The notes under the pieces: generated by a model
The model's database searches: none
Told to the model about the DNA's origin: nothing
The model's input: only the letters and a program-made list of their open reading frames with translations
Shown here: positions 6,401 through 59,004 of the stretch, piece after piece
How the letters are laid out: each line of letters begins with the position of its first letter
How positions within the stretch are numbered: position 1 is the stretch's first letter
Made by a program: the position numbers and the translations under genes
Source: Euglena gracilis
Taxonomy: Eukaryota
DNA: 64,000 nucleotides
NCBI GenBank assembly: GCA_039621445.1
Contig: CP154954.1
Span: forward strand, 38,177,703 to 38,241,702
Reading direction: 5' to 3'

Positions 6401-9400
6401 GAAGTTCCGTAGGAGCCAAAATAAACCCCCCCCAAATAATACCCCCCCCCAAATAATACCCCCCCCAAATAATCCCCCCCCCCCCTTGGGGTCCGACTTC
6501 GGCCGCCGAAATAATACCCCCCCCCCCCTGGTTTCGGGCCGAAGGCCCGGATTTTTGACCTGAAAATGTAGGTAAAAATCACAATTTCTGACAACAAATT
6601 ATGGAAAAAATGGATTTTTCTGGCTCATCTGACCTCCAAAAATGGTAAATTTCACAAGAAAGCGCAAAAAATGACCCCAAAGGGCGGTTTTGGGTGCTAT
6701 TTTGGGTTTTACGGGACTTCGGAAAATTTCGAAAATTTTGGAAAAATAATACCCCCCCCCAAATAATACCCCCCCCCCTCGGGCCGGGACTTCGGGCGAA
6801 AAAATAATACCCCGGGGGGGGGGGGTATTATTTGGGGGGGGTTAGCACCAAAACCCCGCTTTGGGGTCATTTTTTTGTACTCTCTTATGAAATTTAGCCT
6901 TTTTTGGAGGTCAGATGATCCAGAAAAATCGAATTTGTTGTCAGAGATTGTAATTTTTACCTACATTTTCAGGTCAAAATCCGGGCCTTCGGCCCCAAAC
7001 CGGGGGGGGGGGTATTATTTTTTCGCCCGAAGTCCCGGTCCGAGGGGGGGGGGTATTATTTGGGGGGGGGGGTATTATTTGGGGGGGGTATATTTTGGGT
7101 TTAACTTGATCATGTGTATCTTTTTGCATGTTTCATGCTGGACCTTTTTTGCATTTTATTCATTTTTGTCAATTGAGCTATAAGTGAATGTCACTTTTTT
7201 TTGTGCTTTATTTCTTCCCTCTTGCTTTCCCCCCAGAAATGATTCTCAAATTATCTTTTCTTGTCCTTTCAAATTTTGTCTGTTCTGTCCAGCATCTTCC
7301 CTTCTTTTTGCTGGAGGGGGGTTCAAGGATTCGGGGTGGACATACATGGGTGGGGGATGACCAGTCAAGGTTACATGGCTTCTGCTCACAACCCCCTGGT
7401 CCAAATTCGGGGGCGCGAATGTTTTTTTTCTGGCCCCCAAAACATTCCAAAAATGCACACACGTACGAACACACACACACACATATGCACGCACGCACAT
7501 GCGCATGCACACACATGCAAACATGTGTCAGCACACATGCACACACGCACACACGAAACACATGCACGAACATGTATGCACATGCACATGCACACACACA
7601 TATGTGCACACACACCACTGCCCGCCTCTCTGCCGTCGCCCGGCTGCAGCACTCCACCATGGTTATCACTCCATTGAGGAACTCCCCCGTTGTCGACCGC
7701 ACCGCCATTGCTGTCGCTGCCGCTGCCCCCCACCCCTGGCCAGGGCACCGGCGGCCGCCCAGGCCCGCCCGCTGGCACTGCCGCCACCGGCACGCCTCCC
7801 GCTGCCGGCCGCAGGGAGGGCCGGAGGGGGCGGGGTGGCCGCTGGGGGAAACGTTGGACCCCTCGCACCCAGGGACCACCACTGCCTCCTGCGAAAACTG
7901 CCCGCCCCTCCCTGGGCGCGGGTGCAGGCTGCGTCCCCAACGCCATGCCTGGCACACCTGTGGTGTCAGCAGCGGAAGAGAGGGGACGTGGCGATGCACG
8001 GTGAGGACCCAGAGGATGATTTCTCTCGTTTCTGGAGTTTGGCAAAATCAAAAACAAAAGGGGGAACAGTTTGGATAATTGCTTCAAAATAAGACCTCTA
8101 TGTCCCTCCCCATTATTTGTTTGTTTCGCATCATTTTGGTCTGGGGTGCCTCCCTCAGCTGCAATGGCCCACACAGCCACACCTGCCGCCCCGGGCCACA
8201 GGCCACCGACCATCACCGCCTCAACCTCCCCCTCCAGTACCGCCGCCTCCCCCTCCTCCCCGTCGTCCTCCTCCTCCTCGGCCTCGGCCTCCTCCCTCTC
8301 CGCCTCGCCGGGGCCGGGCCTTACCCGGCCCCCCTGCCGCACCCCCGCGCTGTGCGCCGGCAGGGGCGGCCCGTGGCGGCACGCCGTGAGGTTGGCCAGG
8401 CTGGGCCGGCTCCATGCATCTCTTTAAGCACCCGGGGGGGCAGGGTTGTTGGGCTGGGGCTGGGAATTTGGACTGGTGGCCTTGGGGGGGGGGGGGGCTG
8501 GACCCCAGATTTCCGATGCAAAGTGCCGGAAATTGGGGGGAGAGGATTTGAAAAAAGCCCAAAAATTGCGCTGTTTTGAAGGAAAAAAAATCGGCCAAAA
8601 TATACGCCAAAAAATCCTCTTCTATTGTGGTTGGCGTCGGAAAAAAAATTTGATCTGCTGGGGTCCCGAGCCACAGGGGCGGTGCCCCGTTACTGGCACC
8701 ATTTTTTTGACCTTCCCCCAAGCCCCGTTATTTGGGCACTACTTGCCATCATCAAACGTTGGATCCCGCCCCGATTTTTACTACTAAGGGACCCCCCCCG
8801 GGGGATAACTGGTATGCCATACACACAGATATGCATGCATTTGTATGCATGTGTTTGTATACATATGTTCATGTATGTACTCGCGGCAGGCAAGAATTGT
8901 GGAATATTTTCGTCCTCACTAACCTCTTGGACCAAAAAAAACTGAGGGTGCCCCGTTATTGGAACCATCTTTTTCGCCCCCCCCCCCCCGCCCCGTTATT
9001 CGGGCACTGCCCACTCAAAGGGCACTGCCCCGTTATTTGGCCGTTATTTGGGGGGGGGGTTACCGCAAAAATGGAATCCTGCCAAGGAGGTCACCTGGAG
9101 GAGGCTCCGCAGAGGCTCTGGGCTCCACCAAACCAGACTCCAGGGAGGCTCCCAGAGACTCAGGCAACCAATTTTGTTGACAGATTCAGCAGCACACAGG
9201 AGCTTGAGAAATTGGCCCCTACAGGGGGCACCAGCCACCCCAAAGAGCCGCCCAACTAAGGTTAATGCGCACGGAGGGACCCTGCTCGGCGCCTTCAGCG
9301 CCTCGCTCGGGTCCCCCCATGTTTTTAACCCTAGGTGGGTGGCTCTTTGGGTTCGCTGAGCACCCTGTAGTGGCCAGTCTTACAAAGCTGAGCGGGACAA

Positions 9401-11354
9401 GCTCAAATGTTTGCAGGAGAATCCTAACCCTAAACCTACTCCTTCAAATGGCCTCAAAATTCCTTTTATGTGATCGTTGTTTACAGTTTGGTGAGGTGAT
9501 GACTGAGTTGGTTACCTACTTGGAGGAGGCTCCGGGGAGGCTCCCAACCAAAAGTGAGGATTCCAAATTTTTGGGGCCCCCGGAAGGGGGTGGTCTGGAT
9601 CTGCCCCCCGGGGTCTGACCCTCTGCTCAAAACCAACGATCACTCAATTATCCGGCTGGACAATTACCCAAAAATGGAATAAGCATCTGACAACCCTGAA
9701 AAGTGCCCCCCTCCCCAAAAAGCCATTTTTGGTCCGTTTCAAAACGTCGAAAATTTTTGGTTCTTTGCAACACCATTTTTGGCCATTTTTTGAACACTTT
9801 TTCGAGAGAAAAAAACTGGTTCTTTGCAACGAAAATTTTCGGTGGACCCACCAAAGAGGGGCCAGCTGGGTTAGCAACAACCCCCCTCCCCTCCGGGAAC
9901 AGCTGGGCTGGGCCGAAATCGGGGCTGGCTGCAGCAGCCCCCCCCCCCCCGGGGGGCCTGCAAACCCCTAAAGTGATGCATGGCCGGCTCCGCACCACGA
10001 TGACGTCGTCGTCCGGGGGGACCTCCTCCGGCAGTCGCCCGGACGGCGTGGGGGTCCACTCCGCCGGCCCCGGCGCCCGCTCCCCCGCCGCCCTCCGGGG
10101 CCCTGGGGCAGAGACCAGGCGGTTCATTAAGACGGAAGGTCTTTGGACTGCCTTTGTTTGCTCACCACTTGCCCAGGGTCGGTGGAACTGAAGTCACTGG
10201 AAAAGCCTGATGGGTCTAAACAGTAAATCCAAAAAATACGGTCAATGACATGAGTTACAAGGCGGGTGTTGAAGAATGAAATTCAACTGTGACAACAAGC
10301 TGCAAAACAAACAGAGAAGAATGTCAGGCTTCTTATTTACCAACCCTGGGGGGGAGGAGGGTGCCTTGTGCTTCGGGGTGCCTGTCCCACAGCAGGCACC
10401 CTCCCCCAAGGGGGGGGGGGTCAGTTTCTGCCACCAGTGCCTGCGGGCCCAGGCAAATTTCCCTTGAAAATGGACATGCCTTTGGTGCCTGGGATGTGCT
10501 GTAGCACTGCCCCACCAAAACCCGACCCCCTGGGGGTCGGAAATGTCCTACCCACCTGCCTGCCATAGCACCCAGCCCCCCCCCCCCGGGGGGGGAGGGT
10601 GCGCACTTGCTGAAAACGAAGCCTGGAAGATAAAGAAAAACACAAAACAGAAAACAGAAACAATAGAATCAGAACGTTGAAGAAAACACTCAGGGAGGGG
10701 AAATTGATACCAAAGGCCTTCGAGAAAAAAAAATGCGGGAAAATTGCGGAAAAATTGATATCAGGAATGTACACATTTCTTCTGGAGGAGGCAAAGAAAA
10801 AAATTTACAATTTCTTCCATTTTGCAACATTAGCGTATATTTTGAGCCGTGGTTCACACGTTTTAAAACAAAAAAGCCCAAAAAAATTACTTTTGGAACA
10901 TAATTCCAAAAAAAACAGGATTTTGGGAACATACCAATTCCAAAAATATGGATTTTGCTGGGCAAAAAAAAAACGAAAATGGCGAAAAAAGATAAAAAAT
11001 TTGGTCTCAGGGAAAATCTGCTCTAGAATGAAAAATTTTTTCTAAGCCAAAATCCAAATAAACCCAAAAAAACCACACAAAGCGTGCAAATTCTGCCAAA
11101 ATTATCAAAATTCAGCAAATTTTTTTGCAAAAAAAAAAACTGCAAGAGAATAGAAAAAATTGCATTCCCTTGCAAACCATTCACAGAATGGCCAAAACTC
11201 ACTTCAGCTTCCATTCAGACTCACGCAGAAAAATTGTGGAAAGGGGGGGGAAACTGCGGGAAAATTGCGGAATATTGCAGAAAATTAAGGAAAACTGCGG
11301 AAATTGTGGAAAAATTGCGGATATCAATTCCCCCGTGACATATTACAGCACACA

Positions 11355-11398
<44 letters not shown>

Positions 11399-14300
11399 AC
11401 ACACAAGCACACACACCACTGCCAGCCGACCCCACAAGCACACTGCTGTCAGCTGCCGCCCCCATGCTGCCCTCCGTGTCCCTCTGGTGAGCAGCTCCGC
11501 CGCCTTCTGCTCCGCCACCACCGTTATCGGCGCTGCCACCGCTGCCGACCCCCGGCACCACACCAGCCCCCGGCCGCTGCGTCAGCGGTTGCCCGGCCCC
11601 ACCGCCTGGCGGCGCTGCAGCCGGTCCCAGCCCGCCTCCTCCTGCCGCTGACCGCAGGGGGGGCTGGGGGAGGGGGCTGGAGTGCAGTGGTGGCAGAGGC
11701 CTCGCCGTGTGGCCAGGCGTTTGCTGTGGCAACAACAATGGGGCACTAGATGGCGTGGTGGGCTGTGTCCTTCCCATTGCACACACCCCAGTGAAGGTGG
11801 CCAAACCCAGGGGCAGCCATGCAAATTTGCCCCTCCCTTCTGTTACAGCAGTCTTATAGCTCGATGTATTTCAGGAAAAGTTCATGAAAAAGAACTGTTT
11901 CATTCACAGCTTCTCGTCACTGCAGGAATTAGGAATGGAAGCTCTTGCACGAACGGCGGCATCATTCATCGCACCACAACCAGGGGTTTTTTTTAAGACC
12001 GGGGGGAGGGGGGGTCCCCCCGGGGGGGTCCCGGGGGACCCACAAAAAATGGACAAAAGTTGCGAAAAATGCTAAAAAAACACTTTTTCGGCGCCGAAAA
12101 GTATATCCCACCCCCCTCCGGGGGGACCCCCCCCGGGGGGGGCTCTGCCGGACCCGGGGTCCACGACTAAAAAAAAACCCCTGACCACAACACCATGGCG
12201 TTGTTTAACCCTGCTGGGGGGGGCACAGCTGGGAGGCTAAATTTCTGAGCTTCCTGGAAAAAGCTGTTGGCTGACCCCCCCCAATCAGGGCACAAGGCGG
12301 AAACTGCTCGCACCGGGTCAACAAAGGATTTTTGTGACAATTACAATGCATGACTTCCAGAACCCAAATAATGCAGTCAGGATATGCAAACTTCCTTGAA
12401 AAGCAGCCTGACAAAAAACCTCTTGAAAACATAAGAACACCCCTCTCAGAGCAAAACAGAGCTAAATGATTGTGTGTGCCTGATGCCGGCTGCAATTTTT
12501 GCTGCGGGAGAGTGGGAGTTTTGCCTTCCCTCTGCTGGGAGTTCTCTTCACTCTTGATATGTCAAAAGCCTTAATTTCAGATTGAGTAATTGCTGTTAGC
12601 TGAGGACCCAAAAACGGCCAGAATTATCAACTAAAATATAAAACCTTCCTGTTTGCCACTCATAATGTGTTCGAACCAAAATTGACGCTGTTTGCCAAAA
12701 GAAAAAGGGTGTAGACAATCAAATAAAAAAAATACACCACCCTTTGAAAAAACCCACCACCCGTTGTCATTTAAATGAAAATTTTCATACTTTCCACTGT
12801 GCTTTTTATTCCAGATATTCCAGAATATTCTGGATATTCCAGAAATTTCTATTCTGGTTTATTCCGGTTTAATCAGGACTGGAATATTGCCCATGTTCAG
12901 GGGTCAAAAATGGTTTCAAATGCGCACGATGACATCATTCTTTCTGTTGCGGGGTGTCACAGAGTCTTTAGAATGGGGAGTAATGATGGACAACTTGCCA
13001 CCGAACTCAACTGGTAATTTGTGGCAATCCTCCTGTGTTCTTTACTGCCCTCATCAACCACCAGCAGCAGAGTTCTCTAACAGCCCATTTCTACCTGGTT
13101 TATTTGTTTGCATGTAAAATTTCCACTGCATTTTGCGACCAACTTCAAGAACCTCCACAACATACCACAAGGATTCAGAAAGCAAGCAAAGGGGTGGACC
13201 TGTTACCCCATCTCCAGAACACCACCTGCCACTGGCAGGTGTCGCACAGGAAAAAGGAGGTGCAGGGACCGGGGCTTTCGTGCATTTTTGGCAAATTTCT
13301 CAATTTGGGGAGGTCAGTCCCGGGGGTTTCACAACTCAGCAACGTGCTCTGGAGGGTCAAAACATCAAACTTGCACAATGCCCCCCAGGGTGGTGTGCCA
13401 CCACTGAAAAGTTGCAAGCATCAACAAATGGAGGGATATGGCATATCACAACCAGCTCAAAAACCTGGACCCCAACCATCAAAAACAAAAGGTTCAAAAT
13501 CTGCAGATCTATGTTGCTGCACCGCCGAAGTTGATGCCCTCCAGAGCGCTGCCCACCCCAAAGGCCTCCTCCGGGCCCTCCCTGGGCGTCGGTGCAAGCT
13601 GTGATTCCCACGCCGTGACCGGTGTGCCTGTGACGGTGGGCACGCCGGCGGAAGACAACCATTAAACCCCAAATAAACCCCAAGGGAGAAAGATAAAGAA
13701 GGGGGAGGTTGAGGTGTTTTGCAAATTTCTGTCACCGCATTCTTTTGGGTTGATTTGTGGCGGATCTCTTCCTTTTGTCTTTTGGTGCATCACACGCATG
13801 AAACGACGTGCTGAATGTCAACTTCTAATCCACCCCACTTTTTCACCCCCTTCTCAAAGCTAACGCCAGCAAAGCTAACACCAGACCTACATCCCTGCGT
13901 TGTCCCTCCATTTAAGTGCACGGGGTGCGTACATTACTGGACCGAAGTTTTGGACCCTCACGGGCGTGACACTTATTTGGACACTGCACACCATTTGGGC
14001 ACAGTGCACTTTAATGGAGGGTGTAAACTCCCCCCCAAATATAAAGCTCGCCCAAATATAAAACCCCCCAGGGATGAGCTTTGCCACCCGAAACAAAGCA
14101 CCCCCCACCAATGCAAATCCCGCCGATGGTGAAATTCAGGAAAAGGAAGAAAAATCTTGGGTGAATGCAACAATTTTTCACCAGAAATTCTCCAGTTTGG
14201 ACAAAAGCTGCACATTTTGGGGGAAAATGGGGATACACAACGAAAATTCGTTAAAAATTGGCATTTGATTACAGTTGAAGCCCGCCACAGTATGTATTGG

Positions 14301-17300
14301 CCACCGGGAAAAGTTTGATTCCCCCCCCCCAATATAAATCTCCTTCCTGGGGGTGTTGAAAGCCCACCCAAATACAGGTCGAATTCACTAAAAAAGTACC
14401 CTCACCCAGTTCACAAAAAAATACCCCCCCCCTGGATGAAATACCTGCAACAGCAGAATAGACACCCCTGATCAACCTGCAACATTTCATTTACCCTCTC
14501 AGCTTTTCTTATGCCCCACAAACTGACCCCGGAGGCCCGTGAGGCTTTGAGGGTGCGGGTTGAGGGATATCTGTGCCAGAATCCACCACTTTCATATGGT
14601 GCCATCATGAAGCTGGAAAATATTTCAAAGAGTACCGTGCAAGGTATGCTCGCATGCAGCCTGTTCATTCCCTTTAATTGGTGACCCTTTCAGGAATGGC
14701 CACGAGGTTCAAATTGAGAGGTACATTGAAGCGAAAAGCAGGAACTGGACTAAAACAAAAGAAATCAGAAGTTTACACATCCAGGTGTGTTTGCAACGCG
14801 AGTAAAATTAGCTACATCTGTCCCTCTGTTCTTAGGTTTCGTCGGCAAATGATCCAACTTGCCCTCAAAAACCCATTTTGGGGGTCCCAGAAAATTGCAA
14901 ATGAGTGGTACACCAGCACAAGAAATGCATTGTTCAACCGCCCACCTGGTGCCGTTGTTCAGGTTTGATGTTATGAAAAAGCAATCCCTTGGGCTTTTAT
15001 CCGCACAGGTGCCACCAAAACCCTCAGCTTCTTTTGTGCGAAGTCTTCTGAAGAAAGGTAGCATGTGCTCTGTTCCGGCTCACCGAAAACCCCTGCTATC
15101 CGGAGGAACAAAAGGATCCGCTTGGACTTCGCCAGACGGCACCTCAGTTTCAATTGGAAGAAAGTCATTTGGTCTGATGAAAAACTTTTCAAAGTTTGAC
15201 CTATGGGGAAAATCAGGTATAGCAACAGGTGACGCCATCTCCCTTTCAATCCACTAACCTTTTGCAGATGTTGGGTCAAAGAAGGCACCAATCGTTACCT
15301 CCCCCAATACATCATTCCGACAGTCAGCCACCCTGAAGGAGTCATGGTGTGGGCAGCCATGTCTTATTCGGGAGCAATCTGCATCAGACGTTGCCCAACA
15401 AATATTGACCAGGTTGAGTACCAACGCATCCTTGGGACTGCCTTAGGATTCATCCGTAGAAGGTGTGAGGGGTTTCTGAATTAGCTTCCTTGTGCACTTG
15501 GCACACCCGCAGGTGCCAAGTGCAAGAGCGCCACCACACAGGGCCTTGTCAACTACAACCTGGCTCCGGCGGAGGAGGATCGAGCGGCTCAACGGAGGGA
15601 CGTGGCCTCCACAATCTCCGGACATGAATCCCATTGAGCACCTGTGGCCAATGGTTCTAACCAAGCTCCGTGGGAGCGTCTTTGCAGGCAAAGACCAACT
15701 GTGGTCAGCTCTGCAGTGCGCTTTTGCTGAGATCACCCCTGAACAAGTACGAACGTTGTATCATAGCATGCCTAATCGCATGAAGGCAGTCATTGCATCG
15801 CGTGGAGGACACACCCGTTATTAGCGTGTGCCAGAGAGGCACAGTGCACCCTCGTCACTGTTCTGTTGCATTGGCATCGCATTGGTAAAGAAAGGTCCGG
15901 ACATTCTGCTCCTCTGCAATTGCAGGTATTTCATCCGGGGGGGGGGGGTATTTTTTTTGTGAACTGGGTGGGGGTACTTTTTTAGTGAATCCGACCTGTA
16001 CAAAGCTGGGGTGCTTTCTTTTTTAAAAGGGGGTTAAACTGCGGGAGCACTTGGAGTTCTGACATATCACCTCAGGCTGACAGAAGCACAGGATCCACAC
16101 CTGCCACCCCGGGCCATGGGCCACCGACCATCACCGCCTCAACCTCCCCCTCCAGCACCGCCACCTCCCCCTCCTCCCCATCGTCCTCCTCCTCCTCGGC
16201 CTCGGCCTCCTCCCTCTCCGCCTCGCCGGGGCCGGGCCTCACCCGGCCCCCCTGCCGCACCCCCGCGCTGTGCACCGGCAGGGGCGGCCCGTGGCGGCAC
16301 GCCGTGAGGTTGGCCAGGCTGGGCCGGCTCCATGCATTTCTTTAAGCACCCGGGGGTCCCAGTCGTGAAAGCCGAGCCCCACAAGTTGCATTTTGTCACG
16401 TTAACGGAAAGCCCACGCTTGTCAGCATCACGGATGAGAGTTCCGATGATATGTATGCAGTTGCGATGCAGATTCCATCAAATGGAGGTTCGGTACATCT
16501 GACGAAGGCCCTCAGCCACCATTGGGGGGGGTACCCATCATACAATTGCTTACCGACCCCCGGGGGGGGGGGGGGTCACTCCACTTTTTTAAAAACCAGT
16601 CAGTCACTCATTTTCAAAAAATCAGCCAGTCACTCCCCCCCCCCCGGGGGGGGGGGGGGGTCGGCCACTCAGAAAAACGGCCACTTTCCAGTCACTTTAG
16701 GCCATTTTAGGCCAAAAAAAATTTTTCCGGCGCCTTCGGCGCCGGGGTCACTCAAGCCACTTTTGCCCACTCCTGGCCGACCCCCCCCCCGGGGGGGGAG
16801 GGGGTCCGGGCCCAAAACCAGTCAGTCACTCTGAAAAAACCAGTCACCCACCCCCGGGGGGGGGGGGACAGTGCTTAAGCAATTGTCTGGTACCCATTTT
16901 GCTGTGTCAGCGGGCTAGGGCTAGAAATTTGCCCTGAGCCTGGGGGGAGGGCTGCAAATGTGCAGCCCTGGCTGTATCTTTGCAGGGCCGGGATGGGCAG
17001 GGTGTTAAGGGAGCAGGTAGGGGTGGTGGGACGGGACCCCCTTCTCCCTGAACAAAAATACTTTCGGCACAAAATGCGGAAAATTTTGGGGGGAGCTTTT
17101 AAAAAAAAAAAAGCCCAAAAAAGCGAGGATTTGCACGTTTTTAGAAAAAGCAGCCAAAATGCCAACAAAAAAAATTATCTTCTCAAGCGAAAAAGGTTGG
17201 AGATTATTATCATTGGTTCTGGGGCAGGGCGGTCCTTAAGCAAAAAAAAAAAAAATCCCGTCCCGGCACAGCCGAGAAATTTTTTTGAAAATCCATGACC

Positions 17301-20300
17301 GAAAAGTGGTCGTATATTGCCCGAAACGGGTCGACTTCGGGAAAAAAAGTGATTCCTGGCACTTTTGGAACATCGCCCATCCGCCCATAGCGTCAAAAAA
17401 TGCGTTTTTCGACTTTTTGGTTTTCGACCCCCGTTCAAGTCCCGGTCGATCCTTGGTCGGGGGGGCGGTCCTTAAGGGGCGGTCCTTAACGAAAAAAAAA
17501 AAACTTCCCGTCCCTTATGGACCGCCCTGTTCTGGGGTCCCCGTCTGGACCCTCCTCCGGGGTGTCTTACCTCCCCCCCCCCGCACAAAACCAATTCGCT
17601 CAATTCGCTTAATACTGCGGCTGGGTCAAATGGGATAATTACTCAAAAAATGAACAGCAAAACACAGCTTTTGAAAAATAAGAGCATCTGACAGCCCCAA
17701 AAGACCCCCAAAAAGTGCCACCCACCCCCAAAAAACCATTTTTGGCCATTTTTGAACACTTTTTCGAGAGAAAAAAACTGGTTCTTTGCAACGAAAATTT
17801 TCGGTGGACCCAGCAAAGGGGGGCCAGCTGGGTTAGCAACAACCTCCCTCCCCTCTGGGAGCAGCTGGGCTGGGCCGAAATCGGGGCTGGCTGCAGCAGC
17901 CCCCCCCCCCGGGGTCTGCAAACCCCTAAAGTGATGCATGGCCGGCTCCGCACCACGATGACGTCGTCGTCCGGGGGGACCTCCTCTGGCAGTCGCCCGG
18001 ACGGCGTGGGCGTCCACTCCGCCGGCCCCGGCGCCCGCTCCCCCGCCGCCCTCCGGGGCCCTGGGGCAGAGACCAGGCGGTTTATTAAGACGGAAGGTCT
18101 GGACTGCCTTTGTTTGCTCACCACTTGCCCAGGGTCAGTGGAACTGAAGTCACTGGAAAAGCCTGATGGGTCTAAACAGTAAACCCAAAAAATACGGTCA
18201 ATGACATGAGTTACGAGGCGGGTGTTGAATCTCACTTGCAAAAAAATAATGCAACATGCTACAGAACAAAAAAGATGAAAAAAAACAGAAACAGCAACAG
18301 CAAGAGAATCAGAACGACAACGCAAAAAAAACCTCCACGCATGCACACACACACACACACACATCCATACACAAGCACACACACCACTCCCAGCCGTCCC
18401 TACCAACGCACTGCTGTCAGCTGCCACCCCCACGCTGCCCTCCGTGTCCCTCTGGTGAGCAGCTCTGCCGCCCTCCGCGTCTATGGGCGCGTCCTCTGGC
18501 CGCCGCCCCGGTTTGGGCGTCCACTCCGCCGGCCCCGGCGGGCGTTCCCCCGCCAGCTGGTGGGGCTCTGGGGCGGGAAAAGCCAGCGTGGCAACGATGC
18601 GAACCGAGAGAAGGGAACTCCCGCAGACGCCTGTCAAAATAACTACCTTTGACAGCGTTCAACGTTCCAAGGTTTGTGTGCGAATGAGAATCCCCCACTC
18701 CCAACCCCCATTCCGGAAGCGGCGTTTGAGACGGACCTGTAAAGCTGTGGGGAAGGGACATACAACCCTGCGGGCTTCGGGTTGTGGCGGGCCCCCAGCA
18801 CCAAACAGGGGGACTTAACAGTGGCCATTGTCATGGGAAATTTACCTGTTTGATCCTGTCCAGAACCCAAAACCGACCTCGGGGAGTTTGCATCCCCCTC
18901 CCCAGGGTGTTGAATGCAGCCCCCTCCCCCCCCCCCGGAGGTCTGGATCTAGGCACATTGGGTGCCAGCCCAGGCAGGTGGGATACAGTTGGCGTTGGCA
19001 ACCCGTTAAAATATAAAATTTATTCAGCCATATAACACATCCAAAATGCAAATATTTTTCAGCGCAAATCTCAGAAAATAGCCCACAAAGAGATCCCCCA
19101 AAAGCAAACTTCACCAAAATTGGAAAAAAGGAGGAAAAGCTGCAAAAAAGGGCGGCTGGATGGTAATAGATTTCGCTTTCGGGGGTACAAAGGTGGGCCA
19201 AAAATGGGCCAAAATGGGTCAAAAAATGGACGAAAATGGGTCGGAAAAAAGCTGTCCAGGACATTTTGGGGGGTAAAAAAAATGTATTTTTTGAATAGTT
19301 GGCAATTTTTTGGACACTTTTTTGCGATTTCGTTGTTTTTTTTTGGTTCTCAGTTTGACCCCAGGTCGGGCCCAGCTCCAGCCTGGGACCCTTATGGGGG
19401 GAGGGTGGGGGGGCGGGGCCATCAGCCTTTTTCCAGCCAGCACAATTTTTCCAGCCTCTGAGCTGGACCGGGGGGGGGGTCCTTGAGCAGTGCCCTGGTC
19501 CGCCCCTTTCTTACCCATTTTTTTTGAAAATTCCAGAGAATTTTTGCAATTACACTTGTTTTCTGCTTTTGTGCTTTTCAAGGCTGGGGCTTCTTGAAAA
19601 GATTGTTTTATTTTTTCCATGGGGGTTACAACAGGGATGGCACCCAGACATCCCAGGATGGAAAAAGGCTGCTGGCTGGAAAAAAGTTGCTGGCTGACTG
19701 GACCCCCCTGGGGCAGGGCAGAATGGGAAGGCCTGGTGGGGGGGCCCCCCCCCCCCCCGCCCACCACAGCATTTTCACTGATTTCGGGAAAACGGGGATT
19801 TTGGCCGGAAAATTTTTGAAAATTTTCTTTGAAAAAGAAACCCAAAATACATGGTTTTTTGATGGAAAACCACATTTTTTCACAAAAAAATATCAAAAAT
19901 TTCAGGGTTAAAAATTGGTAGTTTTTAGGAGGTCCAAAAATTGGTCCAAAAAATTCGGTCCCGGAAATACGGGAAGAGGTGGTGGGGGGGGGGTCGACCC
20001 CCCTCCACCCACCACCCTGGCTGTTTGGCCAATTCCCGTTCTGCCCTGCCCTGGGGGGTGGGGTCGAAATTTCTTAAACAACGCTGTGTGGAAAAAAGTG
20101 CAAAAAGCTGCGTGGGAAAAAAAAATCGACAAACCACCAGAAAAGGATTTTCGCAGTTTGGAACAGTGCAACGAACTAAGAACCCTCAAATTGGAAAGTT
20201 TGGGTCCTGTTCAATAAAAAGTGCCATGTCTGTTCGTAACGGTGAAGCAAGGAGAGGCACATGTTAGCAGGTGCTGATGGATGACTACACTGCTGCAGGG

Positions 20301-23300
20301 CTTCCCCTGACCCCGTCGTCGAGGCCCCTCAACACAGGTGCGCAAGCACGCACACCGCTCCCAGCCAACGCCGCCACCTCTCCGCCCTCGCCCGGCTGCC
20401 GCGCTTCCCCCTGGCCGCCGATCCTGCGAGCAACTCCGCCCCCCTCCGCTCCGCCGCTGCCACCACTGCCACCGCTGCCGTCACTGCCGCCGCCGCCACT
20501 GCCAACACCACCACCACTTCCACCACTGCCGCCACTGCCGCTACTGCTGCCGCCGACGCTGCCACCACTGCCACCACCACTGCCCCCCACCCCAGCGCTG
20601 CCCCCCAGCTGGTAAACCGGCGGCCGCCCTGCCCCACCGGCTGCCAACCCCGGCACGTCCTGCGCCGCCGGCTGCAAGGAGGGCTGAGGGACGATGACTG
20701 AGGCGGGGGTGGGCCAAAAAAAATGCGTTCAAATGACTTTGCCCACTCCCTTCACACTGTGAAAAACATGCACACCGTGAAAAATGATGCGAATTTCTGG
20801 GAAATCGGGAGCGTGCAAGCACAAAAAACACCATTGTTTTGTTGTCCGATAGAAGATTTCAATTTAATAGAACAATTCGTAAAAATTAGCATTTGCACCA
20901 AATTATTTTGGGAAATTGATCCATCAACAGTTTTGTCTGCTGCCTAAATGACTTTTCTGGGGAAGCAAAAAGATCGGTCAACTAACGTTGCAGAGGGCAA
21001 AAGGAGGAGTGTTTGCGAATTGGTGGCTGATGACCCATCCTGCCGGTCCGACGTTTCCCTTGGCAGACAGGCGGAGGGGTTTGTTGAGGGAGCATAGGAG
21101 TGCCTGCGTGCTCCAACCACTGCATTCAGATGGCACCGCAGCAACCTCCACGCCAGTCAACCCCCCCCCTGCAGCAGAAGAGTTCCAGCTCCTCCCTGGG
21201 CGTGGCGGGACGCTCAGCCCACGCTGTGCCTGGCACACCTGCGATGGCGGGCCAAACGACAGGTATTGCACTTGGGTTGCTTGGGCCACCGCTATGCCAA
21301 GGAAGGATGGAAGGGTGCTTGCACCTCTCCTACAATGATATGTGGCAGGTGAGCGCCGCAGAGTGACGCATGGCCATATTTACTGATAGCTTGGGACGGG
21401 CCTCTCGATGCCCCTGTTTGACACCTCCAAAGGAGAGAATCGATTGAAATTACAATCAACAAGAGGTACGATGGCAAGGTCAGCCAACCACATTTTCAAC
21501 CCCCTTGTGGTTATGCGATCTTGTTTGGGGGTTGAATGTGGCAAGGTAGGACTTGTGTGGGGTGTTTACCCACTAAATTATATCCAGGATTTCCCATAAA
21601 CTGGCAAAATTTCTCCACTGTTATTTTCTTGCACAACCATTGCAGATGCATTTTTTGTACTGAGAGGATTATTTTTGACACACTGGTGCTGAATGCCAGG
21701 ATGTTCTTTTGTTGAAAACTCGCCCTGTGGGCACCTTTGCTGGGAAAGTTCTGCAGCGTTTAGCTTGCAAATAAAAAGAAAAGCATCTTGACAGCATCAA
21801 CATATTCAAAAATTAAAGAAAGAATGCTTTCTGCCCCCTCCCCCCCCCGGGTCCCACTCCATCCTAGCACTCAATCAAACAACGAGATGACCCTGGCATT
21901 CATGATATTTGCGATGTATTGGAATGCTGCTGTCCGCGATGTGAGGTGGAAATTTCATAACGTTGTTTGTTCGCTTGTTTACACAAAATGTCAATTCTAT
22001 ACTTAATAGATCTAAAAAAAAATACAGAAAACGTGTTTCCGCAAAATTTCAGGAAAAAGCATTGGCATTGTATTTATCCCAGCCATCGCCAAAACCCAAC
22101 TTTTGCACACCTCCTCCTTGCTCACCCATGGGTGCCATGCCGCCCTCCGTGCCCCTCCACTGAGCAACGTCTTCCTGCTCCGCCCCGTCGCTCCCGTAGA
22201 GGCTGCCACCGCCGCCACTCCCCGGCCCCCCGCCGCCACTGCCGCCACTGCCGCCACTGCCGCGGCCGCTGCCCCCCACCCCCGGCCGGTGTACCGGCGG
22301 CCGCCCCGCCCCGCCCACCGGTGGGGCCGCCGCCGCCACTCCCGGCACACCCCCCGCCGACGACCGCAGGGAGGGCTGGGAAAGGCGGGGGGGGGGCGCT
22401 GGCGGCCGACCCCTCCTTGTGTGATGCGGTGGGACACTTCCCGCAGCACCCACCCCGGGAGACACCTGAGGGGTTGCTTGGGGGTCGCTCCCCCACCCAC
22501 CCCCACCCCCATCCCACCTTCGAAGGTTGTCAGCCCCTCCCTGGGCGGCTGTGTCGGCTGCAGCTCCCATGGTGTGCCTGGCGTGCCTGCAGTGATGGAC
22601 GAGCAGCTCAAAATGGGGGCGTGGTGGCGCACGGGGATGCCCAAACGGACATGGCATACAGCTCAAACAAACTGATCGGAGCAAACAATTTTCAACTGGT
22701 CACCAGCGGTCACTTGGTGGAGGGGACTTAAGCCAGAAACCAGTCAGTTGCACCTCCTGGAGGGGGGGTTGGCCAGCGACCAAATGATTGTATGGATAGC
22801 AGACAGAAATGATCGGAAACCGGCTAATTGTTCTCATTTTTTTGTGAATTGTTCATTGTTTTTTGTGAATTGTTCTCATTTTTTGTGAATTGTCATTTTT
22901 GTGAATTGTTCTGGGCTGTGGACAGGACGGCAATTTCAATGACCAGTTGAAAGGTTGGGGACAAGCCGTCTGCCCCGCCCCCTGGCTCTATGAGAGTCCT
23001 GAGGCGGGAACTGCGTTTTACCTGGGGTCGAACCGGTCCGGAAAATTCGAAATTTGACTCAAAATTTGAGGAGGTTTCCTCATTTCCGGCACAAATTAAA
23101 ATATGACAAGGGAGGGGTCCTGAAGCTGCAAAATCTGCTGGCTGGTTGGACTCCGCTCCAGGGCTCCAGGGCTGGCACTGGACACAGCCCACAACGGCAC
23201 AGCCACACCTGCCGCCCTGGACCACGGGCCACCGCCCATCACCGCCTCAACCTCCCCCTCCAGCACCGCCGCCTCCCCCTCCTCCCCGTCGTCCTCCTCC

Positions 23301-26300
23301 TCCTCGGCCTCGGCCTCCTCCCTCTCCGCCTCGCCGGGGCCGGGCCTTACCCGGCCCCCCTGCCGCACCCCCGCGCTGTGCGCCGGCAGGGGCGGCCCGT
23401 GGCGGCTCGCCGTGAGGTTGGCCAGGCTGGGCCGGCTCCGCACCACGATGACGTCGTCGTCCGGGGGCACCTCCTCCGGCAGCCGTCCGGGCGGCGTGGG
23501 CGTCCACTCTGCCGGCCCCGGCGCCCGCTCCCCCGCCGCCCTCCGGGGCCCTGGGGCGGCAACGATGCGAACTGAGAGAAAGGCGCCAAGCTTTGTCAGA
23601 GCGGTGCCACACCTGCAAGAGGGGTAGCTATTTGCCTGCTCTCTGGGGGTTCCCTCTCCCCTCCCCCACCGCGGCCAGGCGACAGCTTTTAAACCCTTCG
23701 CCGTGACCATTGCACCAATTTTGCGTGTTTTGCGTGTTTTGGTTTCCTTGTTTTGGTCAAATTGCGTCTTGTAAAAATCACTTTGTGCGCAGGTCATTTT
23801 TTGTCCCTATTTTCACATTTTCTGGGTTGTGCACGACCTGTCCAGCGTTGGACAAGGTCGTATGTCATCGAATCAGACAAAAGAGGCAGGAGAGAGCGGT
23901 GCCCTCGATAAAATGGTAACGGGTGATTGGATCCAAGCAATGTTGTTCGAAAAATGGGAAATGAACTCTTTTATTTTGTGTTTGAGAAATTACAAAAAAA
24001 ATATGTCAGAACAGGTCAGAGAATTTTTTATACAAAAAAGCAGAAACAGGAGAACACAAAAAAAAGGGGGAAAAGATGCCAAAAGAACAAATAAAAATCC
24101 ATCAAGGAAGCAATGGACTGGCCGGTGCAGGCGAGGCAAACCGGTTGCGGCCGGAACGGCGGCGGTGCCAGAGCCGGCCAGCGGCCCAGCAGCCCCAGGG
24201 GCGGGCCAAGCGGCGGCCCCTGCTTCGCCGGGATGGGCCGGGCCCTCAGGGTGGGGCACTCCTGTGAGGCGGGGGGGGGGGGGGCACGCCACACGTTGCA
24301 CGGCAGCCCCAAGTCCCTCAGTGCAGTTGACACTTCCAAGCGCTGCGGATCACCTTATCCCCTTGGGCAGGCGAACTGTCCCAAACAGCAGGGGTCCGAA
24401 GAGGCACAATGCCTGAGGACATTGGCCGGAAATGCAAATGTTTCTTCTCGCTTCCTGCGATGACTACGCCTGGCATTGGTTACTGAGTTTTACGAGTACC
24501 ATTTAATCTTATTCCGTTGCATACTAAATAAATTATATGTTTGTATATGTATACATATGGCAGGTGTACCTTTGGATACCCCCCTGGGGGGTATTAAAGT
24601 GGGTTGGCCACCACAAATACCCTGGGGCTGGTGAAGATGAAGGGTCAGGCCATTCTGCGTGATTCCCAAAGGCGGCAGATCAGCAGGGAAAGCAAGATAA
24701 AGACCTCGAACCATACAATTTTTTACCGACCCCCAGGGGGGGGGGGAGGGGGGTCACTCCACTTTTCAAAAAACCAATCAGTCACTTTTTTCGGGAAACC
24801 AGTCACTCACTACCCCCTCCCCGGGGGGGTCGGCCACTCTGGAATCCAAAGGAAATTTTTCCAAAAAATGTAAAAAAGGCCAAAAAAATTTCCGGTGCCT
24901 CCGCGCCAGGTCACTTTAGTGGTTTTTTGCTGACCCCCCCCCCCGGGGGGAGGGGGTCCGGGCCAAAAACCAGTCAGTCGCTCCGAAAAAAGCCAGCCAC
25001 CCACCCGGGGGGGGGGGGGGGTCGGCCAGTGCTTAAGCAATTGCCTGCCTCCAACAGTCGGCCCCACAAAGGGGGGCCCCCACTCGGCCCTCCCTTCATT
25101 TGGGAGACAAAAGGGTGAGTGCCAGGATTTGCGGCAGCGGGCAGCTGGGCCGGCATTTTCGGCCGCAGGCAGGCAGGCGGCTAGGGAGTGGGGCCGAACC
25201 CAGCAGGCCGGCCAGTCCTGACCCTCACCCTGCATCGTCACTAACCCCAGGGTACCCGTGGCCAACCAAGTGTCCACTTCGATACCCCCCAGGGGGGAGG
25301 GAGTATCCAAAACTAATCTGCGGTTTGAAAAATAAAGGGACCTGAATAACAAGGTGTTGGAGGTTTGGCACGCATATGAAATTTCAGGGAATTACCACGC
25401 TTTGCTGACAAAAAGTGGCTTAATTAAAGACTCAAGCCGCTCCTCTCCCCACACACCGCTTCCGGCCAGCGCAGTCCACACTCCGCCCTCACCTGCCTGC
25501 GGCACGCCACCCTCCGCTTCACCCTGAGCAGCTTCGCCCCCGTCCGTCCCGTCGCTGTCGTGGATGCGGCCCCCGCCCCCGCCGCTGCCCCCCACCCCTG
25601 GCCGGTGTACCGGTGGCCGCCCTGCCAGGCCGCCCACTGGCGGCACTCCGACCGCCCCCGGCACGCCCCCGGCCGCCGTCGCCCACAGAGAGGGCTGGAG
25701 GGCAGTGTTGAAACCCGACGGTGGCGGTCCTCAATGCCTCGCCTCTGGCCACGTCAACCCCCGACTGGTGGAAGGCAGTCGTTGGGTGTTTGGGGGCACC
25801 GTGCCGCTGTGCTGGTGCAGTGGCAACGGTTGTGCTGTAAGCCCTTTCCCTCCCCTTCTTGCCCCTTGCCTCCCCACCTCAGCCACTGACCGTTCAGACT
25901 GGTAAAGGTGGCCAGCGGCAATGCACAGGCCGACCAACTCACCACGCAACACCCTACCACGCCCCCTCTGCCGCCGGCAGATCCCCAGCCTCTCCCTGGG
26001 CGTTGGTGCACCCGTCGCTCTCGATGCCCCACCCAGTGCACCTGCGAATGGAGCGGAAGTGAAACCGGTTCAAGTAGACTTGGAATCGCCAACGGAAAGC
26101 GTGAAGCGGGTGACACAGCGGGGCTGAGTTTGTGCTTCTGATTCCAAAGTCTAATGAATGAAATGTCAGAAGTGGGCCGGAGGGAACCGGCAGCCCAGGG
26201 CCGGCGTGGGCGGCGAACACACCTTCGCCCTCCCACGGCTGCGGCACTCCGCCGCGGAGGTCGCCCCACTGCCCAGCTCCACCTCCCTCCGCTCCGGCGC

Positions 26301-29300
26301 CGCCGTTGTCGGCGCTGCCGCTGCCGCCGCTGCCACCGCCCGGCGCCAAGCCACCCCCGCCGCCGGGGCCGCCCCCGGGGCCGCCCCCCGCTGGCCGAGG
26401 CACCGGTGGTCGCCCTGCTCCGCCAGCCACTGGTGCTGCGGCCGCTCTTGGAACCCCCACCGCTGACGGCAGAGAGGGCTGTGGCGGGGGGGGGGCTGGC
26501 ATCTTCCCAAGGCAAATCTGCTTCCCCACAGCTGGCGCCACCAGCTTCTCCCTGGCCGCCGACACATCTGGCATCCTCCCGGCTGTGCCTGGCGCACCTG
26601 TGATGGGGGGCAAGAACTCCTGGCAAAAGTACCACCGATTACGCAATCGCCCCCCCCTCCAACGGGAGCATGGGCTAATTTTCCTGGGGGGATCACAGGG
26701 GAGGGTCCCACCCGCCCACCCGCCCACCATCCACTCCCCTCTGGGTCATCAACCCATACCAAACCTGACGTGGAAAACAAACGATTTGAGATGTTCACCT
26801 GTCATGCCAAATGCCTGATGTTTGTAGAGGACTTGCACTAAAGGACAGACTGTTTGGGGACGTGCGATTTTGGGCTAACCACAAAAATACCCTTCAGTGC
26901 GCTATTGTCTCAATGACCTCAGGAGTCGACGATTCCTTAATGGACTCCAGGACATACAATTGCTTACCGACCCCCAGGGGGGGGAGGGGGGGTCACTCCA
27001 CTTTTTTAAAAACCAGTCAGTCACCCATTTTTAAAAAACCAGCCAGTCACTACCCCCCCGGGGGGGGGGGGTCGGCCACTCAGAAAAACGGCCACTTTCC
27101 AGTCACTTTAGGTCATTTTAGGCCCAAAAATTTTTTCCGGCGCCGGGGTCACTCAAGCCACTTTTGCCCACTCCTGGCCGACCCCCCCCGGGGGGGAGGG
27201 GTCCGGGCCAAAAACCAGTCAGTCACTCTGAAAAAACCATGGTTCCAGTAACTTGGCACCCCCCTTTTAAGACAAAATACAAAATACCTTTGCGACGCTG
27301 AAAAAAAAAGCCCAAATAACCTGGCGGGGGGGGGGGGGCAGGGCCAAAAGTTGGTTCCAACAACCTGGCACCCCGCCAGGTTATTTGGGGGAGGGGTTTA
27401 CACTAATAACAAAATCCAAAATCCAAAACCTTGCAAAATGTCAAAATCACCATAATCTGAGACGAAATGGCCCACACAGCCACACCTGCCGCCCCGGGCC
27501 ATGGGCCACCGCCCATCACCGCCTCCACCTCCCCCTCCAGCACCGCCACCTCCCCCTCCTCCCCATCGTCCTCCTCCTCCTCGGCCTCGGCCTCCTCCCT
27601 CTCCGCCTCGCCGGGGCCGGGCCTGGCCCGGCCCCCCTGTCGCACCCCCGCGCTGTGCGCCGGCAGGGGCGGCCCGTGGCGGCTCGCCGTGAGGTTGGCC
27701 AGGCTGGGCCGGCTCCGCACCACGATGACGTCGTCGTCCGGGGGCACCTCCTCCGGCAGTCGCCCGGGCGGCGTGGGCGTCCACTCTGCCGGCCCCGGCG
27801 CCCGCTCCCCCGCCGCCCTCCGGGGCCCTGGAATATGAGCATTCGGCCGCCGGCAAAGCCGTAGGAATACACACATTGCCTCCTTCACCTCGGGTGTCAT
27901 GGATTTGAGCGGAACGACATCTCTCAAGCGGCTCAAACGCCATTTGTGTTCACATGGGTCCTTCCATGTGTATCCTTTTTTGTCATATGCGAAAAAAAAT
28001 TAAAGGGTTCACTTGAAAAAAGGCAATGACTTTGTGGCAATGAAATTAAAGAGAAGGAGAATAAGCTGTTCTGAACTCGCCAGGAATCCGTGGCAGAATT
28101 TATTGATTGCCCGACCCCGCAGGATGTGGACAACAGTTGAACAGACACCTGGATCAAACTCCTCTACATGAAGCGACCATATGCAAAGCCAAAACCAAAA
28201 AAAAATCTGACCATGGCGTGGGAACAATGAAGAAAAAAGGCGAAAATGGTACCAAATAGCAATCGCTCCAATTGTTCCCGCAACAGGCAGCCATATGCAG
28301 AGCAAACCGGTTGTTGATGGAACTGCGAGACTTGCCGGTGGCCCATCGTCCTCAGGTCTGCCGGGAACGTTGCTGTTGCTGTTGCTGCCTATTGTCCCTG
28401 TGCACAGGAGTGGTCGGTAGGATACCACACGAAAGAAAGAAAACAAATCCATCTGTTTGGGGTGGTGTGCATGGGCAGGATGGGGAATTTGGACAGGTAT
28501 GAAACATTTGTTCTGACAAATTGGTGACGAAAGAAAGTGGCAAAGTTATTTAACTTAGGAGTTAAATTGAAGTTGAACTTTCCCAAAATATTCAGGTCCA
28601 AAGTTCAGCACACCCAAAAATCCAAGTTTGAGCAAAGTTGATGAATTGCATTGAATTCCTGCTCTGATTAGGTCAACCATCCAATTTTTGCCAACCCCCT
28701 GGGGGGAAGGGGGATCACTTCCACCCTTCCAAAGCGCAGGCGGTCACTTTTCTCGGAAAAACAGTCATTCACTACTTCCAGGAGTGGGGGGGTCGGCCAC
28801 TCTAGAATTCAAGGGAAAATTGAACACAAACGTGAAGAAAATGCCGTTAAAAAAATCTTCATCGCCGGATCACTTTGGTGGTTTTTCCCGACCCCCGGGG
28901 GAGGGGGTTTGGGCCAAAAGCCAGTCAGTCAAACTGAGAAAAAAAATCAGTCACCCACCAGGGGTGGCAAATAATGGATGCCTCTGGGTCTAACACCTGG
29001 GTGAGGTTGGTCGAAAATAAATGCAGATCAGACAGAGGACATAAATGTGGATCAGACAAATAGGGTAGGCAAAAAATCACCCATTTTTTCAGGACCATTC
29101 TTCAAAAAACCACGTATTTTTATAAGAAAAATTATTTTCTCTTCCTGTGGATAGGCAAATTATTCCATTTCCTCTGTGCTCTTCTGGGGAAACCATCCAA
29201 ATTTCCTGGCGTTTTGCCTTCAATATTTGGTGTTCGACTTTTGGTTACCTCAATGATTTTATAACAAAGAAAGAAGGATGAAAACGGGCTGGGGAGGTGG

Positions 29301-38211: not shown

Positions 38212-38294
<83 letters not shown>

Positions 38295-53015: not shown

Positions 53016-53095
53016 TGATCAGAGTGGAATTTGAACCCACGCCCCCGGAGACCAGCATTTGAAGCTGGCGTCTTTGACCACCTGACCATCTGACC
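53016..53095 (-). tRNA. tRNA-Leu(CAA)-like gene (functional, pseudo-tRNA or SINE head)
   Basis: Acceptor GGTCAGA/TCTGATC+A; D arm GTC/GAC; anticodon arm CCAGC-TTCAAAT-GCTGG; short variable arm; T arm GTGGG-TTCAAAT-TCCAC; followed by TTTT. Confidence 0.7.
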
Positions 53096-58121: not shown

Positions 58122-59004
58122 CCCCACTGCCGGCCATTCCACCACCCCGACTCCCCCAAGCACCAACAGGCTGGCCCACACCTTATCGGGGTTTACGATG
58201 GGCTGTGATCCAAGGGAGACGCCACCAAGGATCTCTCCCTGGGTGAGCCCGGGCGGGCCTGTCCCTCCCCTGGGTGCTGCCGCAGTCCCCACTGCCGGCC
58301 ATTCCCCCACCCCGACTCCCCCGAGCACCAACAGGCTGGCCCACACCTTATCGGGGTTTACGATGGGCTGTGATCCCAGGGAGACGCCACCAAGGATCTC
58401 TCCCTTGGTGAGCCCGGGCGGGCCCGTCCCTCCCCTGGGTGCTGCCGCAGTCCCCACTGCCGGCCATTCCCCCACCCCGACTCCCCCGAGCACCAACAGG
58501 CTGGCCCACACCTTATCGGGGTTTACGATGGGCTGTGATCCCAGGGAGACGCCACCAAGGATCTCTCCCTGGGTGAGCCCGGGCGGGCCTGTCCCTCCCC
58601 TGGGTGCTGCCGCAGTCCCCACTGCCGGCCATTCCCCCACCCCGACTCCCCCGAGCACCAACAGGCTGGCCCACACCTTATCGGGGTTTACGATGGGCTG
58701 TGATCCCAGGGAGACGCCACCAAGGATCTCTCCCTGGGTGAGCCCGGGCGGGCCTGTCCCTCCCCTGGGTGCTGCCGCAGTCCCCACTGCCGGCCATTCC
58801 CCCAACCCGACTCCCCCGAGCACCAACAGGCTGGCCCACACCTTATCGGGGTTTACGATGGGCTGTGATCCCAGGGAGACGCCACCAAGGATCTCTCCCT
58901 GGGTGAGCCCGGGCGGGCCTGTCCCTCCCCTGGGTGCTGCCGCAGTCCCCACTGCCGGCCATTCCCCCACCCCGACTCCCCCGAGCACCAACAGGCTGGC
59001 CCAC
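58122..59004. repeat. 165-bp tandem array, ~5.3 near-identical units
   Basis: Unit starts 58122, 58287, 58452, 58617, 58782, 58947. Confidence 0.95.

Follow-up and report, generated by a model that had tools for sequence, protein, structure and literature searches.

A transposon-type insert in two of five related exons of a Euglena gracilis gene is a candidate nonconventional intron

Within a 64,000-nucleotide stretch of the Euglena gracilis genome (GenBank assembly GCA_039621445.1, contig CP154954.1, positions 38,177,703 to 38,241,702 of the forward strand; hereafter the window, in whose own numbering all positions are given), a gene on the minus strand carries several copies of one exon, here called Y. 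Two of these copies are split at the same position by an insert of about 1.6 kb that bears the marks of a MITE, or miniature inverted-repeat transposable element. The ends of the insert are shaped like those of Euglena nonconventional introns, and the insert is therefore probably spliced out. That it is a MITE-derived nonconventional intron with a predicted exact removal from the pre-mRNA is a reading to which we give an even chance.

Results

An insert with a target duplication splits two of the Y exons

The initial annotation of the window had described four near-identical Y exons, two of them intact and two split at one position, and both the coordinates and the sequence are as claimed. All of them lie on the minus strand. 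Copies A (27486–27827) and B (23209–23550) are intact at 342 nt each, with the empty insertion site at 27708–27715 and 23431–23438, respectively. Copy C (16101–18060) is divided by an insert at 16331–17940 into a 5′ part of 112 nt in gene orientation (17949–18060) and a 3′ part of 230 nt that includes one copy of the direct repeat (16101–16330). Copy D (8183–10102) is divided by an insert at 8413–9982 into parts of the same lengths, 112 nt (9991–10102) and 230 nt (8183–8412). The halves of each split copy thus sum to 342 nt. When rebuilt by coordinates, copies A–D differ pairwise at 10–16 of 342 positions (95–97% alike). Although these four copies are confirmed, the count was incomplete, as a fifth copy, E (40182–40511, minus strand, 330 nt), also exists. 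Copy E is an older paralogue, ~77% identical to the A–D forms, with both exon boundaries and the phase retained and with an empty site at 40404–40411 that reads CAGCCGGC on the gene strand.

Copies A–D are each preceded on the minus strand by a C-rich tract and CAG/ and followed by /GTGTGG (the slash marking the exon boundary), and the flanking AG/ and /GTGTG of the split copies C and D are the same as in the intact copies A and B. Similarity between A and B is lost at most ~10 bp beyond the exon boundaries. Bases specific to C and D flank both sides of the junction: on the plus strand these copies have G at positions 10020 (D) and 17978 (C), where A and B have C, and A at positions 8381 (D) and 16299 (C), where A and B have T. 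These bases distinguish the split copies from A and B and permit an unambiguous RNA read-out. A partial Y-like segment (18485–18576; the first ~90 nt of Y, 78–81% identical) is joined to the exon upstream of C, and the exon upstream of D is without it.

The sequence GCCGGCTC stands on both sides of each insert, at 16323–16330/17941–17948 around the 1610-bp insert of C and at 8405–8412/9983–9990 around the 1570-bp insert of D, while A and B each have a single copy of it at the corresponding position. The perfect 8-bp target-site duplication reported in the initial annotation is present at both inserts, but the full direct repeat is in fact 10 nt long, GGCCGGCTCC, which corresponds to an 8-bp duplication and one chance matching base on each side. 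The duplication may thus be 8–10 bp long, and 11 different registers of removal would yield an identical mRNA. A length of 8 bp is favoured over 9–10 bp by the MITE M2, whose repeat measures exactly 8 bp; in the other MITEs of the window one flanking base matches as well, so that their repeats fit either 8 or 9 bp. The inverted ends, CATGCAT...ATGCATG, had been given as 7 nt long. They are indeed present, but the inverted terminal repeat measures 14 nt, with 13 of 14 positions matching in D and 12 of 14 in C. Both end motifs are found in the window at these two inserts only (0 expected; 100 shuffles), and the CATGCAT element accordingly has only two copies in the window, both inside Y.

The site is empty in A, in B and in the older copy E, in keeping with the proposal of an insert gain with a control inside the same gene; it is the empty state of E that identifies the insert as a gain. 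Taken together, the target duplication, the inverted ends and the empty site in three paralogous copies establish a transposon-type insertion.

Good alignment between the inserts of C and D is confined to 26 bp at the start (96%) and 214 bp at the end (94%). Their interiors had been described as diverged, and they do differ; this is nevertheless not simple divergence, since short blocks at 62–67% identity are set in unalignable, mostly unrelated sequence and the insert of C contains nested elements. These are the unstranded MITEs M3 (16539–16889; 8-bp repeat GTACCCAT at 16531–16538/16890–16897) and M4 (17225–17529; ends CAGGGCGGTCC...CTG; 8-bp repeat TTCTGGGG), each with its own perfect 8-bp duplication. 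Given the diverged interiors and the nested elements in C, the insertion is old and predates the duplication that relates C and D, which also takes in the intron upstream and the exon beyond it, at 85–88% identity. Even though the insert is old, the 8-bp repeats are unchanged on both sides of both inserts (0 of 32 positions altered).

The insert has the architecture of a nonconventional intron

None of the 11 registers of exact removal has GT-AG, GC-AG or AT-AC borders, in either C or D. No conventional pair of splice sites thus allows exact removal, and exact conventional splicing was rejected on this count. One register, 9986/8407 in D and 17944/16325 in C, has the published geometry of nonconventional introns, and these are the very junctions that the initial annotation had put forward. 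Here the RNA reads exon...GAGCC/GGC CAU GCAU...AUGC AUG GAGCC/GGC...exon, with a 3-nt 5′ spacer, a stem that starts from +4:−6, a 5-nt 3′ spacer and a downstream exon that starts with G. CA is found at +4,+5 and TG at −7,−6, and both junctions are of the pyrimidine/purine type. The candidate intron of D would span 8408–9985 on the minus strand (1578 nt; its counterpart in C, 1618 nt). CA and TG at these same positions are described for nonconventional introns in PMC3935182, and the splicing code given in PMC12501133 comprises spacers of 3 and 5–6 nt, a purine-start exon and the triplets C-D-G/C-H′-G.

The end energy of 10 + 10 nt is −10.6 kcal/mol; nonconventional introns are reported mostly at −10 to −2 kcal/mol (PMC11170887). 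Folding of the whole RNA (1578 and 1618 nt) likewise predicts paired ends, as in the minimum-energy fold +3 to +19 pair with −5 to −21 in both D and C. An internal register with CAG/CTG triplets (at about +23/−31 of the element) was also considered and rejected on reading the sequence, because 49–50 extra nt would be left in the exon, out of frame.

The host gene and its introns

An exhaustive HMMER search returned a single match, the protein P0001, which is the EukProt Euglena gracilis entry EG_transcript_15627. Of the 247 residues of this transcript-derived protein, 243 are covered by exact matches in the window, which run from 43854 to 40372 on the minus strand. The match identifies the host as Euglena gracilis, as the initial annotation's assumption of a euglenid host had anticipated. 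The last 46 residues of P0001 are the start of Y copy E (its first 140 nt) in frame −2, the frame deduced earlier; the Y-type exon E is coding in frame −2.

P0001 was fitted to the DNA free of assumptions on intron borders. It reads the 5′ part of the gene (40372–43854, minus strand) as 8 exon pieces separated by 7 introns, five of which are GT-AG and two nonconventional. Four of the five GT-AG introns start with GTGTG, and the GTGTG donors and C-rich acceptors of the gene agree with the consensus described for conventional introns of E. gracilis in PMC11170887. The nonconventional intron 4 (41202–41310, minus strand; 107 nt) has no GT-AG register. In the register 41308–41202 its stem starts from +4:−6, its triplets are AGG/CCU and the exon after it begins with G. 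Intron 6 (40639–40822, minus strand; 177 nt) is also without a GT-AG register, and in the register 40817–40641 it reads N3-CAG...CTT-N5/G, with the triplets CAG/CUU and pairing from +4:−6. These two introns indicate that nonconventional splicing acts on this pre-mRNA and that it tolerates departure from the strict triplets.

Other searches gave little. Word-based protein searches with the peptide of Y copy A, at near, longer and shorter lengths, found no match, which is weak evidence because the same searches also missed P0001. Pfam gave no match for the open reading frames (ORFs) of Y and of the neighbouring exons of the same modules (X), and neither the Y peptide nor the end of the insert had a match in scans of metagenomes. 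The ESM Atlas gave no usable match to a 455-aa ORF, and a literature search for EG_transcript_15627 returned no paper.

The X-type exons belong to a series of exon-like units, related to one another and rich in Gly, Pro and Ala, that extends along the minus strand between ~900 and 39800; several of the units are followed by GTGTG. Such units lie near 1.0–1.6, 7.7, 11.4, 20.4, 22.3, 25.6, 26.3, 30.3, 32.4, 37.6 and 39.5 kb. The series may form one giant gene or a set of partial duplicates.

Transposon class and related elements

The initial annotation called the insert hAT-like, a label whose sole basis was the length of the duplication and which we consider unproven. Several superfamilies besides hAT also make 8-bp duplications, so that this length is not exclusive to hAT; the ends, CATGC, do not fit the hAT terminal motif; and the window holds no hAT transposase. 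The one family returned by a Pfam scan of 132 ORFs from the window, and thus its only transposase relative, was a DDE_3 (Tc1/mariner-type) fragment at 15480–15824 on the plus strand (E = 1.9e-4, below the curated cut-off).

Elements with the general build of the insert are enriched in the window. Four have a perfect 8-bp repeat together with an inverted repeat matching at 11 or more of 12 positions, versus none in each of 5 shuffles; a looser scan returned 13 elements, versus 1–5 in 10 Markov controls. A control with the reversed sequence was discarded, as reversal preserves both kinds of repeat, and the shuffles were relied on instead. One family, with the ends CAGGGC...GCCCTG, has copies at 2472–2630, 17225–17529 (M4) and 19714–20048, with duplications matching at 7/8, 8/8 and 8/8 positions. 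Placed in the 3/5 register, its copies read N3-CAG...CTG-N5/R, which is the published code; none of them lies in a recognised exon. A second family, with the ends CATACAATTGC...GCAATTGYCTG and rich in C-run/G-run palindromes, is found at 16539–16889, 24712–25047, 26953–27239 and 28675–28964 as two full copies (duplications 8/8 and 7/8), one truncated and one diverged. M3 (16539–16889) is one of the full copies, and the second, with the 7/8 repeat, is that at 24712–25047.

Alternative explanations

Several observations weigh against the exact removal of the insert. The triplets CAU/AUG fail the CDG/CH′G code, as their third pair is U:A and not G:C, and in the knock-in tests of PMC12501133 any single substitution within CAG or CTG abolished splicing; a compensated change of the third pair goes unreported in the Results of that paper. 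The mismatch does not exclude splicing, because only 61.2% of the annotated nonconventional introns of E. agilis fit the code and 38.8% do not (PMC12501133). The triplets of introns 4 and 6 likewise break its strict form. P0001 breaks off in copy E, within the part of Y that is most conserved, and leaves modules A–D uncovered, perhaps because the transcript assembly was broken at the repeat, and the searched collections hold no protein containing the A–D form of Y. Substitutions private to the split copies (three synonymous, three not) are too few and decide nothing. Lastly, gene conversion can explain the conserved halves and the conserved insert ends.

The evidence for such conversion comes from the exons and from the insert. 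Copies A–D of Y are 95–97% alike, versus only 60–76% for the neighbouring X exons of the same modules, and the module introns are unalignable. The 22 variable sites of Y form a mosaic, in which 5 group the copies as AB/CD and 3 as AC/BD. This pattern indicates that the Y copies are being homogenised by gene conversion, and the abrupt fall of identity between the inserts of C and D would fit it as well. The homogenisation also changes the weight of an earlier argument, namely that the halves of C and D are free of stops and frameshifts. They do sum to 342 nt and are open, but as a functional argument this is weak: three of six frames (+1, +2 and −2) are open in all four copies and the copies are homogenised, so that intact halves prove little. 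The variable sites themselves (12 of 22 at third codon positions, 10 of 22 synonymous) are a hint that the Y family as a whole is under constraint.

The main rival to exact removal is accordingly that the split copies are dead. The insert would stay in place, with C and D skipped, the transcript degraded or A–D being untranscribed duplicates, and the halves would be kept alike by being overwritten through conversion. We consider this rather unlikely, though it is a serious alternative. It is favoured by the contrast between the Y exons and their surroundings, by the mosaic of alleles and by the way in which the C/D identity ends, 26 bp into the insert and exactly at a nested insertion in C, to return for the last 214 bp. 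Skipping would preserve the frame, 342 nt being a multiple of 3, and both the failure of CAU/AUG under the tested code (PMC12501133) and the absence of the A–D form from the proteins of the searched collections fit it as well. Canonical exon skipping is, however, rare in E. gracilis, with one canonical case among 11 skipped-exon events in 18,643 mRNAs (PMC11170887). Both split copies keep intact splice sites, the geometry of the insert is exactly that of a nonconventional intron, and the two natural nonconventional introns of the same gene also violate the strict triplet rule.

Removal by the ordinary spliceosome at weak sites near the junctions, with an in-frame but altered product, appears very improbable. 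In-frame, stop-free GC-AG pairs common to C and D do exist near both junctions: a GC donor that precedes the element by 2 nt can be combined with a CCCAG/ acceptor 12 nt beyond the element (net −6 nt) or with GGAG/ (net +3), and CCCAG/ resembles the E. gracilis acceptors of PMC11170887 in its C-rich tract. These GC donors lack the remainder of the GTGTG-type consensus, however, and in the resulting product the peptide core that is best conserved, DDDVIVVRSRPS, would be disrupted. No in-frame GT donor lies near the 5′ junction, and the in-frame GT pairs that can be formed retain at least 82 nt of the insert and are not common to C and D.

It is also quite unlikely that the A–D "exons" are noncoding, that is, copies of a GC-rich dispersed repeat into which a transposon has inserted. 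The lack of a Pfam match and of a homologue of the A–D form in the searched collections would agree with this, as would the three open frames and the restriction of transcript support to copy E. Against it, the likeness of all five copies stops within about 10–20 bp of the AG/ and /GTGTG boundaries, and the indel clusters that separate E from A (330 versus 342 nt) each total a multiple of 3, and the phase is kept. Copy E is moreover read in the same frame by a transcript-derived protein, and the share of variable sites at third codon positions noted above points the same way.

Discussion

Relation to known introns and elements

The insert shares with the euglenid nonconventional introns of PMC3935182 (Milanowski et al. 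2014) and PMC12501133 (the splicing code of Nomura et al. 2025) the noncanonical borders, the pairing from +4:−6 and the CA/TG dinucleotides, and likewise has 3- and 5-nt spacers, a purine-start exon and borders that can slide by means of direct repeats. Its length of 1.6 kb lies within the range reported for such introns, whose maximum is 4.7–5.9 kb (PMC11170887). Unlike the introns that define the code, this candidate intron carries CAU/AUG in place of CDG/CH′G. Its direct repeat is a complete 8–10 nt, whereas most repeats described for nonconventional introns are short.

A MITE origin of nonconventional introns has been proposed before, as the initial annotation had noted; the proposal is found in PMC3935182, PMC11282704 and PMC12501133. 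Their origin is called unclear in PMC12501133, and PMC6221363 poses transposon descent as an open question. A limited literature search returned no Euglena paper that ties nonconventional introns to a named transposon superfamily. The nearest precedent is the strain-specific, newly gained intron 4 of gapC in E. agilis ACOI 323, which has an 8-nt direct repeat (Milanowski et al. 2016, PMC4770533). There the control came from other strains, and double-strand-break repair was the explanation preferred by the authors, whereas here the control is provided by paralogous exons of one gene, and the clear inverted ends and nested MITEs of the insert point to transposition.

Introner elements of Micromonas, dinoflagellates and others (PMC11282704) are likewise MITE-like, with inverted ends and a target duplication, and turn into introns on insertion into exons. 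They are described as carrying or co-opting GT/GC...AG and as being removed by the spliceosome; for the insert, none of the registers of exact removal offers a pair of this kind. With hAT-superfamily MITEs it shares the short inverted ends and probably the 8-bp duplication, and the three CAGGGC... MITEs of the window look more hAT-like than the insert does.

Other features of the window

Palindromes made of a C-run followed by a G-run (at least 5 + 5) occur 15 times in the whole window, and those of the reverse order twice. The ratio of observed to expected dinucleotides is 1.4–1.6 for AA, CC, GG and TT, 0.63 for CpG and 0.42 for TpA. Tandem arrays are found at 58122–59004 (a 165-bp unit repeated 5.4 times with 98% matches, where long ORFs are open on both strands), at 35051–35492 (a 147-bp unit, three times) and at 38212–38292, (ATG)27. 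The only RNA gene found with Rfam is a tRNA-Leu (CAA) of 80 nt at 53016–53095 on the minus strand.

A model for the origin of the insert and its implications

In the explanation that we prefer, a non-autonomous DNA transposon of the MITE type, with CATGCAT... ends, would have inserted into one Y-type exon and duplicated 8 bp of it, and exon and insert would afterwards have been duplicated to give copies C and D. In the pre-mRNA the inverted ends would pair, leaving the segment GGC-[element]-GAGCC with 3 unpaired nt on the 5′ side and 5 on the 3′ side. This is an architecture that the nonconventional splicing system of Euglena cuts, and its action would remove the element along with one copy of the duplication and restore the 342-nt exon exactly, at 9986/8407 and 17944/16325. 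It is our inference that C and D form part of a mature mRNA and that splicing does act on the CAU/AUG variant.

The published code allows a further and more tentative suggestion. Its spacers of 3 + 5 nt add up to the length of an 8-bp duplication, and the nonconventional splicing code might conceivably mirror, in RNA, the ends of one class of transposon, with the two spacers as the duplication and CAG/CUG as the bases with which the inverted ends begin. We would not yet lean towards this idea. If it were true, any element of this kind that entered an exon, whichever its orientation, would from the outset be an intron capable of exact removal, and the Y insert would be one such event with its empty site preserved. 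The hypothesis of a MITE origin would then become a concrete, testable claim at the level of a transposon family.

Whatever the fate of that broader suggestion, the locus offers a clean natural test, as the same exon is present in two states, empty and occupied by an element with a full duplication and inverted ends. The gene that holds the Y exons is shown to use nonconventional splicing, and the insert carries a compensated CAU/AUG variant of the terminal triplets. Splicing of this variant, if true, would widen the known code of nonconventional introns in Euglena.

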